Shown here piece after piece: positions 32,981 to 44,940 of a DNA stretch of 64,000 bases. The position numbers were made by a program, and so were the translations under genes. Source of the DNA: Octopus vulgaris (Eukaryota); the NCBI GenBank assembly GCA_951406725.2, contig OX597821.1:73532001-73596000 (forward strand), given 5' to 3'. Within the stretch, counting starts at the first letter, position 1. Every line of letters begins with the position of its first letter. The notes beneath the pieces are model-generated. The model made no database searches. It was not told where the DNA came from and saw nothing but the letters and a program-made list of their open reading frames with translations.

Positions 32981-33113
32981 GTGTTATTTACATTATTTAC
33001 ATTTGGCGGATATTTATCCTCATCTTGTTTGTTGTTAACACAACGTTTCGGCTGATATACCCTCCAGTCTTCATCAGGTGTCTTGGGGGAAATTCCTAAG
33101 GTATTTTTCGAGG

Positions 33114-33179
<66 letters not shown>

Positions 33180-33337
33180 TCACTGCCTGGAATCGAAATC
33201 AGAATCTTGGGGTTAGTAGACGCGCTCTTTACCACTACGCCATATGTCCGTGTTAACAAAGATGAGGACAAATATCCGTCAAATGTAAACAGTGTACATA
33301 ATTCCCCATCTCTTAGATATAGAACTACGTTGTTATT
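32981..33337 (-). mobile_element. tRNA-headed, hammerhead-bearing short retroelement with inverted tail copy (33250-33325)
   Basis: Minus: A box TGGCGTAGTGG, B-box-like TTCGATTCC, (TAA)n, hammerhead motif, tail; the tail is repeated in opposite orientation beyond the head. Confidence 0.75.
33037..33082 (-). ncRNA. Type I minimal hammerhead ribozyme motif
   Basis: GACAC-CUGAUGA-A-GACUG(gaggguauau)CAGCC-GAAA-CG-UU-GUGUU: canonical core, palindromic AACGUU stem III, one stem II mismatch. Confidence 0.75.
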
Positions 33338-40946: not shown

Positions 40947-42327
40947 GTAATAATAATAACAGTAATAATAATAACAGTAATAATAATAATAATAATAATA
41001 TTTAAATGAATAAGTAAATAAATGAATAAATAAAAAGTGGGTAACGGGTCGCTGTCTCTTTGTGTACGTAGGACAACGTTTGTCCAATACCGCCTTCTAC
41101 TTGTATTTTTAAGATAGACGTGTGTAATTTCAGGGAATTTGACTGCTATTTCTAGGAGATCAAGTTTCCTGTTGTTGTCGATATTCGCCTCTGGTCAGTT
41201 ATGATGTTAGTTAGTTAGTTAATTTTTTGGCTCAAAAAGCAAAAAGCAAGGCCATGTAGAGATGTGTTCCTGTCGTGACCATCACGCCTTTTGTGTATAT
41301 CTAAAACTAAATGTATCCTTCTTTGTTGTTAGGCGTCAGGCTGTGATTCGCGACAATTTGGTTGCTATATCGAGTGGGCGCATAAAAACTTTTTCTCTTT
41401 CTGGTTCTTACAGTAAAAAAAAAAAACAAAACAAAAAGCAAAACAAAGCAAAAAACAAAAAGAACAAATGGTTCCTGAGACAGAGTTAAGCCTTGACGCT
41501 TTTTATGACGAAAGATTTAATTCAAATAGACTTCAGTTCATAGTTGAAGGTTTTTGAAGTCGTTCCTTGCAGAGTTTTGAAGCTAGACATAACTAAAAAC
41601 AGCATTTATATGCCATGGTCCCAGAAGACTCAAAGATAAAGACTAACCCAGTGAAATTTGAACTCAGAATGTAAAGGGCTGCAACGAAATACTTTTAATA
41701 TACGCACTAGAAACAGCCTTAGATTAAAATAAACTCATTCACATGGACTACTGTAATTTATGTAAGTTTATCTGAGACAGGATATAAATATGTATATACA
41801 CTGGTCTATTAATCTAAAGTTGTTTCAAGTGTATCTTAGTTTAATTCTAGTTTGGTTAATTTTCGCACACATCGGCATTTTTCAGCTTGGCTCAGAACAT
41901 CCGGAGTATTCGTCAGTGAGGAGACCAAATCATGTCGGAATACCGTGTTTGGCAATCCACCAACGTCCTGAGCAAAACCCTGTGTTCATTACGAACAAAA
42001 GTCTCTTCCGAGGCGCAATAGCACAGCTAGTGCCATTCGAGCTTTATATAAACCTTATGTTATATACGCTGGTACTGGAAAGGCTTAAAGGCTTTAACGT
42101 GCAAATTAAACGTTGTGGTTAAACGACGCTTTTTGATTCTGTGATCAGAAAAAGAGAAGGACTTCCTTAACTTCAACGTTTATTACCGTAAACACACACA
42201 CACACACACACACACGACGAAAGTATTTTTGTATCATCTGTTGTGCTACTATCCACTTTATTATTATCCGTCCTACGTTTGTTGTTGTTGTTGTTTCATC
42301 CTTTGGGAGGAACAGTTGTTTGTTCCT

Positions 42328-42472
42328 TCTCAAGCCACACCTGGCTCATAAGGGCCGGTTTCTCGGTTTCCTTGGCGTATAGGTTCCCCACCTGGACGGG
42401 ACGCTAGAAATCGAACTCACAATTGTTTGGTCATAAATCGAATGCTCTAACCATTAAGACACGCACCTTCAC
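42328..42472 (-). mobile_element. Internally deleted SINE with family C-type head
   Basis: AATCGAACTCAC...CTAACCATTAAGACACGCACCTTCAC head. Confidence 0.6.
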
Positions 42473-42616: not shown

Positions 42617-43078
42617 AAACAGATACATTATTTACATTTGACTGATATTTGTCATCTTGTTTGTTGTTAACGTTTCGGCTGATATACCCTCCAGCCTTCA
42701 TCAGGTGTTTTGGGGGAAATTTCGAACCTGGGTTCCCCTTTCTAAGGTATTTTTCGATCTTATTATTATTATCATTCAGGTCACTGCCTGGAATCGAACT
42801 CGGAATCTTGGGGTTTGTAGCCCGCGCTTTTTAACTACTATGCCATATATCCGAGTTCCGAGTTAGATTCCAGGCAGTGATCTGAATAATGATAATATCG
42901 AAAAATACCTTAGGAATGAGAACCCAGGTTCCAAATTTCCCCAAGACACCTGGTGAAAGCTGGATGGTATGTCAGCCGAAACGTTATGTAAACAACAAAC
43001 AAGACGAGGACAAATATCGTCAAATGTAAACAATGTAAATAATGTAAATAATTCCTCATCTCTTAAAACAGATACATT
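42617..43078. mobile_element. Head-to-head inverted dimer of the tRNA-headed hammerhead element with a 13-bp flanking direct repeat
   Basis: Minus copy about 42630-42848, plus 5'-truncated copy about 42856-43065; AAACAGATACATT at 42617-42629 and 43066-43078; hammerhead motifs at 42665-42709 (-) and 42945-42989 (+). Confidence 0.8.
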
Positions 43079-44338
43079 TTTGGCCCTTACATCTTCGACT
43101 CAACGCAATGTCCAGGATGTGAATGTGACAATTGGAGGGAAAGAGGATTATATCAGCGTTGGTTACTTTGTTTATCGACCCAGAATGGGTGAAAAGCAAA
43201 ATGGATCTCGACAGAATTTGAACTCAAAGCGTTGAGAGCCGGAAGAGATATCACAACGTATTTCATCCGGCGTTCTAACGACATGGTCAATCGCCCCCAC
43301 CCCGTCCGAGTGATATCAATTTATTTCGAATAAGATTCCCTGAGGATTTGGAAGGAGACCACGGGGCATCGGATCAACTGGATACTGGTCAAAGACAGAG
43401 ACAAAGGTAAATGGCTAACCACACTCACACACACGTAGAGAGAGAGAGAGAGGATGTGTGAGAGAGAGAGAGAGGATGTGAGAGAGAGAGGATGTGAGAG
43501 AGAGAGGATGTGAGAGAGATGATAAAGTAGATACCTAGCTAAAGACAATGAGACAGAAAAAGAAAGGATGAGAGACAGAGTGAGGGGGAGAGAGAGGTGA
43601 GTCCGTGAAAAAAGGTTAGAATAAAGGGTAGAGAGGGGGAGAGAAGCGATGAAGGGAAAGAGGGGCGGGAATTAGGAAGACAGAGACAGAAAGACGAAGA
43701 ATTAATTTAAGAAAATCAACACACGCGATGTAAGTTAATTAATGCTAAATTGTCCTTTGACTATAGCTTCGATATTGGTTAGATATAAAAAAAATTTAAA
43801 AAAAGTGACACCCTTCTTAAAAACCCCCAAAGAACCCCCACCCCCATTTCTTTACAAAAATAAATAACAACAAATTTATGCCGAAATATTAAGATACTGC
43901 GAGTGAGAGGTGTGAACCTTAGAAAAATAAAGAAATAAAATATATAAATAAAATTTTTTTAAATTCAGTAAAAAATTGGACAAAATTGACCGAATTGGGA
44001 TGATCCTAGAAGACACACGTCCACTTGTCCCTCCTCCCACGAAACGAAAGAATTATTTCATTAATCGATTATTTCAATCGATTTTTTTCTTCATTTTCGT
44101 TATTGATTTTTGTCCTCTTTCGAACTGTCTCTTTACAAAACACAAGGAATCAGCATAAAATAAATACAAAACCAAAACGACACGAAGTGTAAAACTACTA
44201 CTACTACCACCACCACCATCACTCCTCCCCCTACTACACTAACAATGCCAACATAAGCAACCGCAACAGTGAAAGTCGGGCAACGAGTTGGAAGGACGAA
44301 ATACGAAAGAAGCAAATGCTAACTGTTCACCTAGATTG

Positions 44339-44385
<47 letters not shown>

Positions 44386-44940
44386 GAGTGAGAGAGCAGT
44401 GCATGCCATCAAAGTGACACTGGGGTAAAATATACGAAGCCCAGTATACCCATCATGACTACCCGTCTGATAAGGGTACACTAGGCACATGCATCACAAT
44501 CATGTGTGCGCGACATGGTGATCTCATATCAAGATAAACAGCACATGACCTTGCAGGTGAGGCCCGGTTACAATATTCTTCTGGTCGAGTAGCCCATCCC
44601 GCTCAAAAGGTGCCTGAATAAGGGTTGTTTAAGGATTATGAACAAAACACCCATGTTTCCAGAGGTGAATTATCCAAACCCCAAAGAATCCCTCTCAACA
44701 CATGGCTATGATGCTCCCCAACTACTTCTGCTTGTGATCAGAGATGCACATATCACCAGCCACTAAGGGACATTCTCAACTGGTTATGGTAAAACAACCG
44801 ACAAGCAAATCTGTAGTATTGAGCAGGATATTTGCTGTAGCCCATCTTTTATACGAAGACAAAACAACGTGCATGATAACACTTCGAATCAGTTAAGATC
44901 AGAAGCCATGAGAGCCACTGCTTGGTACTGCATGAGAGCG
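44386..44940. repeat. Unclassified interspersed repeat adjoining (ATT)n
   Basis: Complex ~550-bp block bounded by ATT/GTT microsatellites; single copy in this window, classification is inference. Confidence 0.35.

Follow-up and report, generated by a model that had tools for sequence, protein, structure and literature searches.

Head-to-head terminal repeats of a Penelope-like element with a tRNA-like head, enclosed by a 13-base duplication in Octopus vulgaris

The window analysed here comprises 64,000 nucleotides of Octopus vulgaris DNA (GenBank assembly GCA_951406725.2, contig OX597821.1, positions 73,532,001 to 73,596,000 of the forward strand), and the locus under study occupies its positions 42617..43078. 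Two copies of a repeated unit lie there head to head, a minus arm followed by a plus arm, between the two copies of a 13-base direct repeat. The features of this locus, and a second locus of the same family, are listed below; the arm coordinates are given against a 274-nt family unit computed from fetched genomic copies.

32984..33326, both strands: second locus of the same family, with a minus arm covering unit 4-246 (short tail) and a plus arm covering unit 189-271 (long tail)
42617..42629, plus strand: target-site duplication, left copy, of which the final 6 nt are also found in the element at the short start site
42624..42853, minus strand: minus arm, a Penelope terminal repeat covering unit ~6-241, short-tail end
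42664..42710, minus strand: minimal type I hammerhead motif of the minus arm, with an intact CUGAUGA core (42698-42704) and a 5-nt deletion that eliminates the stem I 3' strand
42790..42801, minus strand: B-box-like motif, from direct reading of the sequence
42835..42845, minus strand: A-box-like motif of the putatively tRNA-derived head, from direct reading, the head having been aligned to tRNA loci
42850..42864, no strand assigned: inversion junction, a 4-nt overlap (TCCG) common to both arms, then a 7-nt tandem duplication
42856..43067, plus strand: plus arm, a 5'-truncated terminal repeat covering unit 53-262, long-tail end
42950..42956, plus strand: damaged hammerhead core (CUGGUGA) of the plus arm, which carries further changes besides the core
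43066..43078, plus strand: target-site duplication, right copy; its first 2-3 nt also match the element

The original prediction of an inverted dimer flanked by a 13-bp direct repeat was borne out: the 13-mer has no third occurrence in the window on either strand, a 13-nt repeat bracketing a given insert would arise by chance with a probability of about 3e-5 even when a slack of 30x30 nt is allowed, and the repeat grows to 16 nt when one mismatch is allowed. The proposed order, a minus copy and then a plus copy truncated near the B box, also stands, since the plus arm starts 4 nt before this box; the term "full" holds for the minus copy with the reservation that some 5 nt of the head are missing, as is the 33-nt tail. 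The plus arm includes the first codons of an open reading frame (ATG at 42916), and its long-tail end is 10-12 nt shorter than most long ends of the family. Gapped identity between the arms amounts to 84%, and the two fold as a single long hairpin (z -24.8). They differ at 13 of 133 compared columns and have no derived substitution in common. At the second locus the plus arm begins at unit 189, the predicted ribozyme cut, and not at unit 53, so that the breakpoints of the two loci differ as had been claimed; the duplication candidate at that locus is of 7 nt only. Other high-copy repeats lie on both sides of the main locus (window 42300-42410 and 43150-43260). Taken as a whole, 42617..43078 is an ordinary, decayed and typical insertion of a Penelope family.

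Both ribozyme copies proved to be damaged when read directly, as anticipated, the minus arm by the stem I deletion and the plus arm by its CUGGUGA core. This damage looks like later decay, because the arms share no derived substitution in the compared columns. The minimal hammerhead motif is likewise present in the family repeat, where it was read directly and folded, and follows the pattern given in the accessible text of PMC4209133. Rfam searches called neither a hammerhead nor a tRNA at the locus and no hammerhead in the family repeat, so that the hammerhead and tRNA-like motifs rest on direct reading plus alignment or folding. Four of 43 breakpoints fall at unit 188-190, the predicted cut (P 0.02, for a site chosen after looking), which gives a weak hint of self-cleavage. 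Beside this cut, at unit 186-188 (window ~42669), small deletions were found in 16% of arms, twice the rate of any other site, a figure inflated by the inclusion of loci picked for their likeness to the deleted arm of the window; the simplest account is slippage at a short direct repeat.

The order of the unit is a tRNA-like head with A and B boxes, an (AAT)n tract, the minimal hammerhead and the tail. Among 30 tRNA loci of the genome, the head aligned best to tRNA-Arg, with a score of 64 against at most 52 in 500 shuffles (the shuffles being scored against seven tRNAs). As the 30 loci cover six isotypes only, the tRNA-Arg assignment is tentative. ARAGORN found no tRNA in the window; the head with its two boxes has what is expected of a tRNA-derived head. 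Of the arms that reach the head, 24 out of 30 stop there, which is what would be expected if the RNA begins at the head. The sense strand of the 2645-nt majority sequence described below contains no run of four T residues, where only 2.8 would be expected (P 0.03-0.08); when another Penelope-like element (PLE) family was sought as a control for T runs, all 30 loci returned belonged to this same family. Transcription by RNA polymerase III from the head is thus a plausible reading of the sequence. The head, apparently of tRNA origin, sets the family apart as a variant among Penelope families, and a literature search that lay outside Repbase, Dfam and most subscription journals found no published PLE with a tRNA-derived repeat. 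Should such a promoter of tRNA type turn out to be active, it would be an uncommon feature for a coding retrotransposon.

The unit corresponds to the pseudo-LTR, together with the tail, of a protein-coding PLE of the reverse transcriptase (RT)/GIY-YIG type, and not a stand-alone SINE. Several copies share RT- and endonuclease-coding sequence directly upstream of the tRNA-like head; a search with RT DNA retrieved 30 loci, in about 20 of which the head comes after the end of the ORF, while in copies such as L167, L153 and L163 the ORF opens inside the unit and continues past the tail. The majority sequence, derived from 69 fragments, forms a 2645-nt monomer with a single ORF of 831 residues, to be compared with full-length relatives of 825-841 residues and with a natural open stretch of 569 residues that contains a DKG motif. 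Pfam RVT_1 matches support the RT. As to the endonuclease, the GIY-YIG residues Y, Y-G, R and E, together with C, C, H and H, are kept in 77 aligned proteins, and the C-terminal domain was modelled with a pLDDT of 91.7; the top two fold matches of this model were I-TevI (E 0.92) and T4 EndoII (E 1.0), neither of them significant, and Pfam gave no endonuclease match in this family and one at E 0.017 in a relative. The repeat is found at both ends of near-full copies (e.g., L186 and L234), and the 5' repeat stands in tandem at 8 of 63 ORF loci. The family therefore displays the features by which EN+ PLEs are recognized: an RT ORF, a C-terminal GIY-YIG domain with CCHH, a pseudo-LTR that arises by partial tandem and includes the start of the ORF, with a minimal hammerhead motif, an inverted 5' repeat, a tail of 30-40 nt at one end, and a short and variable duplication. 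Domain order and layout suggest the Penelope/Poseidon clade as a candidate assignment.

A separate tRNA SINE that borrows the Penelope enzymes was weighed against this identity. It would account for the tRNA-like head with its two boxes, for the 24 head-stopping arms and for the fact that short copies are far more numerous than ORF copies, a short transcript from the head being possible. The coding element itself, however, carries the same head immediately behind its stop codon and once more ahead of its start codon, the 3' half of the unit corresponds to the first 52 codons of the ORF, and no sequence private to the short copies was found. A SINE is non-coding and distinct from its autonomous partner, whereas here the whole unit, including the head, lies inside the coding element, and we consider a separate SINE unlikely. 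A non-LTR retrozyme, defined in the consulted portion of 10.64898/2026.07.22.740005 by a head-to-tail hammerhead array, was also considered and rejected: such a tandem array is absent, and same-strand upstream pieces occur in 8 of 90 loci, mostly as split heads. At one locus (L237:6-376 and 1384-1459) a second copy of a block from the element's 5' junction lies some 1.1 kb upstream.

The 2.8-Gb genome contains 1352 exact occurrences of a 37-mer taken from the hammerhead region (reversed control, 0), which 1 in 33 to 4 in 51 unselected arms match exactly; the genome should therefore hold about 20,000-45,000 arms. The sample consisted of the first 90 of 100 places listed on one contig (C1), picked without regard to arrangement, and provided 89 usable anchors after L072, in which the anchor was missed, was left out. 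An adjoining head-to-head inverted partner was present at 49 of the 89 copies, which corresponds to about 45% of loci after correction for double sampling. Among 159 arm 5' ends, in a set that includes loci selected for the ORF, 55 lie at the head, 12 extend into the ORF and the others are scattered. Of 45 pairs, 23 are surrounded by a target duplication of at least 9 nt, a rate to be set against 9 in 600 for controls with swapped flanks; over all sets it was found in 37 of 69 pairs (median 12 nt, 80% AT) and was absent in the other 32. At the inner junction, overlaps of at least 3 nt characterize 38 of 57 ungapped joins, compared with 30% in permuted ones, and 33 of 90 pairs carry extra letters. 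The bases common to duplication and element average 2.4 at the short end and 1.9 at the long end, versus 0.7 and 0.6 with swapped duplications, a lenient control in that chance matches extend the duplication inwards.

Breakpoints and duplication lengths, which it had been suggested to tabulate, were thus obtained for the sampled copies, in which inversions are common. The notion that the inversion forms anew at each integration is supported by the frequency of the pairs, their scattered breakpoints and the duplications that enclose them. The additional claim that this happens "as in PLE insertions" turned out to be literally right, the unit being a PLE terminal repeat. The rival views, that the arms were inserted independently or were copied from a palindromic master of fixed form, would agree with the observation that the arms at the locus differ at 13 columns while the duplication is perfect; this divergence is nevertheless close to the within-pair norm of the family (8.7%). 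Since breakpoints are scattered over the unit and duplications enclose the pairs, there is no fixed palindromic master, in line with the original inference, and independent insertions are very unlikely; with about 45% of loci paired, both schemes are refuted at the level of the family, and for the locus itself they retain hardly any probability.

An empty allele was sought in contigs of other organisms (B to E), and none was seen among the joints displayed. In B and C the right junction is filled, with contigs that bridge it and include 41 letters of the element; in D the left contig enters the element by 24 letters, too few for bridging and suggestive only; and in E neither a filled nor an empty junction could be read. 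In D and E a single-copy contig aligned only from 43072-43074, inside the right direct repeat, and the right junction may differ in these organisms, for instance by a longer tail. Among unpaired arms, 12 of the 15 that start in (AAT)n are joined directly to (AAT)n ends belonging to three other repeat families (L049 and L060; L057, L063, L068, L069 and L119; L059, L075, L101, L109 and L112), one of which stands alone in the window at ~44312-44406; the sequence upstream of L063 is nearly identical to that of L068. These fusions fit insertion into AAT tracts, or chimeras moving as units.

The arrangement of the arm ends proved informative. Arm 3' ends form two groups, short (unit ~232-247) and long (unit 270-274), and were separated by a cut-off at unit 258, so that the plus arm of the locus, which ends at 262, was counted as long. 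One long and one short tail were found together in 38 of 45 pairs of the first set (P 1.4e-6, both loci of the window included) and in 22 of 24 pairs of the second (P 1.8e-5). Pairs in which the alignment of one arm ended before unit 200 were left out (6 of 51 in the first set and 14 of 38 in the second). The pooled figure is 60 of 69, versus 34.4 expected (P 1e-10), with nine pairs that break the rule. Among these 60 pairs, the short-tail arm extends more than 15 nt further 5' in 27, the long-tail arm does so in 18, and the arms are level in 15. The locus 42617..43078 belongs to the group of 27, because its short-tail arm reaches unit ~6-11 and its long-tail arm unit 53.

Arms also tend to pass the head, or to stop at it, together. 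When one arm bears ORF sequence, its head-reaching partner runs into the ORF in 9 of 12 cases (a hand tally, which becomes 7 of 10 without the two partners, L045 and L137, in which no repeat could be seen), compared with 6 of 30 among arms overall (Fisher P 0.0014) and 0 of 18 among partners of head-stopping arms; five unclear loci (L127, L129, L157, L178 and L258) were excluded. The palindromic head may itself favor head-head joins. Site 70 of the unit, which behaves like a subfamily marker, agrees between the arms in 23 of 26 pairs; recurrent non-CpG changes in CCAGG motifs occur at unit 70 and 127-128, and only the former shows this behavior. The few variants shared between arms, 24 at non-CpG positions versus 8.8 when permuted, are concentrated in few loci and could derive from age structure or later gene conversion; these counts do not decide between one and two RNAs. 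Most differences are private, which indicates that arm differences are mainly due to later decay. In one locus (L008) the arms share eight derived changes, six lying in unit 175-192, a pattern reminiscent of a conversion tract or of an aberrant template common to both arms.

These observations can be integrated in a model in which the locus represents two head-to-head PLE terminal repeats within one 13-base duplication that probably arose from a single insertion, with both target strands extended on the element's RNA. A staggered cut by the element's enzyme, offset by about 12 bases, would leave a 3' end on each target strand. One of these ends would be extended from the distal site (unit 270-274), its counterpart from the proximal one (unit 232-247), and 1-3 matching bases would assist either start. 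Both cDNAs would then extend towards the 5' end of the RNA and stop at the tRNA-like head or earlier, and their 3' ends would anneal over a few bases (at the locus TCCG, with a 7-nt slip) before fill-in. The subsequent decay of the copies would have damaged both ribozyme motifs. With somewhat less assurance, we favor the view that both starts were on the same repeat of the same RNA. The end of the plus arm at unit 262, instead of 272-274, speaks against the model. According to the consulted part of PMC11167929, both target strands are cut and extended in vitro by an anole PLE, for which a dimer is predicted, and copying begins at two sites that delimit its tail; the start sites showed no difference between strands and no need for homology, a result that argues against a strict form of the model.

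The same event and the same start sites would be involved if the templates were two separate RNAs, or two repeats, one upstream and one downstream, on a single long RNA; in such a case the long/short rule would come from a difference between the first and the second strand. This possibility, to which we give less credit than to a single repeat but which deserves serious consideration, explains equally the common inversions, the duplications and the fact that either arm may be the longer, and it agrees with three ORF-bearing arms whose partner stops at the head and with the three pairs that differ at site 70. It offers no reason, in contrast, for partners to pass the head in 9 of 12 cases versus 6 of 30. 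A different kind of explanation, proposed for rotifer PLEs with an antisense template (PMC3846280, in the part consulted), is fold-back or self-priming, in which a palindrome would allow one cDNA or an antisense RNA to fold and serve as its own template. The head is indeed palindromic, 18 pairs join at or near both heads, an early-stopping copy would yield one long and one short end, and 33 of the 60 pairs are compatible with it. In the remaining 27, however, the arm that extends further 5' is the short-tail one, the longer tail belonging to its partner, and simple cDNA fold-back fails for them because a copy cannot hold sequence that is absent from its template. At 42617..43078 it was rejected for this reason, the arm that extends to ~6-11, compared with 53, being the one with the short tail, and as a general account we regard fold-back as improbable.

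Returning to the single-RNA model, a more complete and rather speculative version can be formulated as twin priming. The two halves of the enzyme dimer would begin the two strands at the two sites bounding the tail within one and the same repeat, and displacement of the leading copy by the trailing one would be followed by annealing of the cDNA ends; the RNA would start at a captured tRNA promoter, making the element a coding retrotransposon read by RNA polymerase III whose short copies mimic a SINE. The literature search mentioned above, with the scope given there, likewise brought up no account of twin priming in PLEs.

For PLEs, inverted repeats that carry a tail on one side and short duplications have been described before (PMC3846280, PMC8557442, in the parts consulted), and so have been opposite-strand hammerhead pairs (PMC4209133, likewise). 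The origin of the inverted ends and of the one-sided tail is called unresolved in the available text of the former two sources, and what is added here are counts that narrow how such ends form. The family offers thousands of natural insertion products and three countable rules, namely that a long end pairs with a short one, that either arm may be the longer and that the arms tend to pass or to stop at the head together; these rules separate the models of the mechanism and could be tested in the existing in vitro PLE system. For annotation, the ~20,000-45,000 SINE-looking arms of this genome are to be read as ends of a coding element.

L1 twin priming resembles the scheme proposed here in that both target strands would prime cDNA, the junction shows microhomology, and a duplication surrounds the inverted pair; the L1 arms are mostly non-overlapping parts of one RNA. 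In the octopus family, by contrast, the region copied is the same in the two arms, which start from two sites close to each other. Among PLEs, Poseidon PAc of Anolis carolinensis (PMC11167929, in the part consulted) resembles the family in that the ORF opens within the repeat close to the hammerhead, a distance of about 30 nt separates two start sites that bound a tail near a stem-loop, and targets are AT-rich, with both strands cut and extended in vitro in the case of PAc. In the same text no tRNA-like head is described and inverted pairs are not treated, and the start site shows no strand difference in vitro, whereas the octopus pairs combine one long and one short end. Adineta vaga Pen2/Pen2a (PMC3846280) and the general PLE layout (PMC8557442), as far as the consulted parts of both go, share with it an inverted 5'-truncated pLTR, a duplication (there of 8-10 bp), a tail (there of 31 bp) at one inverted pLTR, first codons within the pLTR, an ORF of about 840 residues, solo pLTRs and a microsatellite bias; the pLTRs of those elements carry putative TATA/Inr motifs while the octopus family has tRNA boxes, and the tail asymmetry that is stated there, uncounted, is counted here. 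The Cercyon min-HHR pairs of Schistosoma (PMC4209133) likewise present a minimal hammerhead in which stem II is preceded by one additional base and stem III is palindromic, in opposite-strand pairs 100-700 bp apart, with no tRNA head described in the part of the source consulted. Finally, the schistosome Sm-alpha and Sj-alpha SINE-like elements, as cited in the accessible text of PMC6765202, combine a Pol III-type promoter with a following hammerhead, as the octopus unit appears to do; they are non-coding and often in tandem, whereas the octopus unit is the end of a coding element and occurs in inverted pairs.
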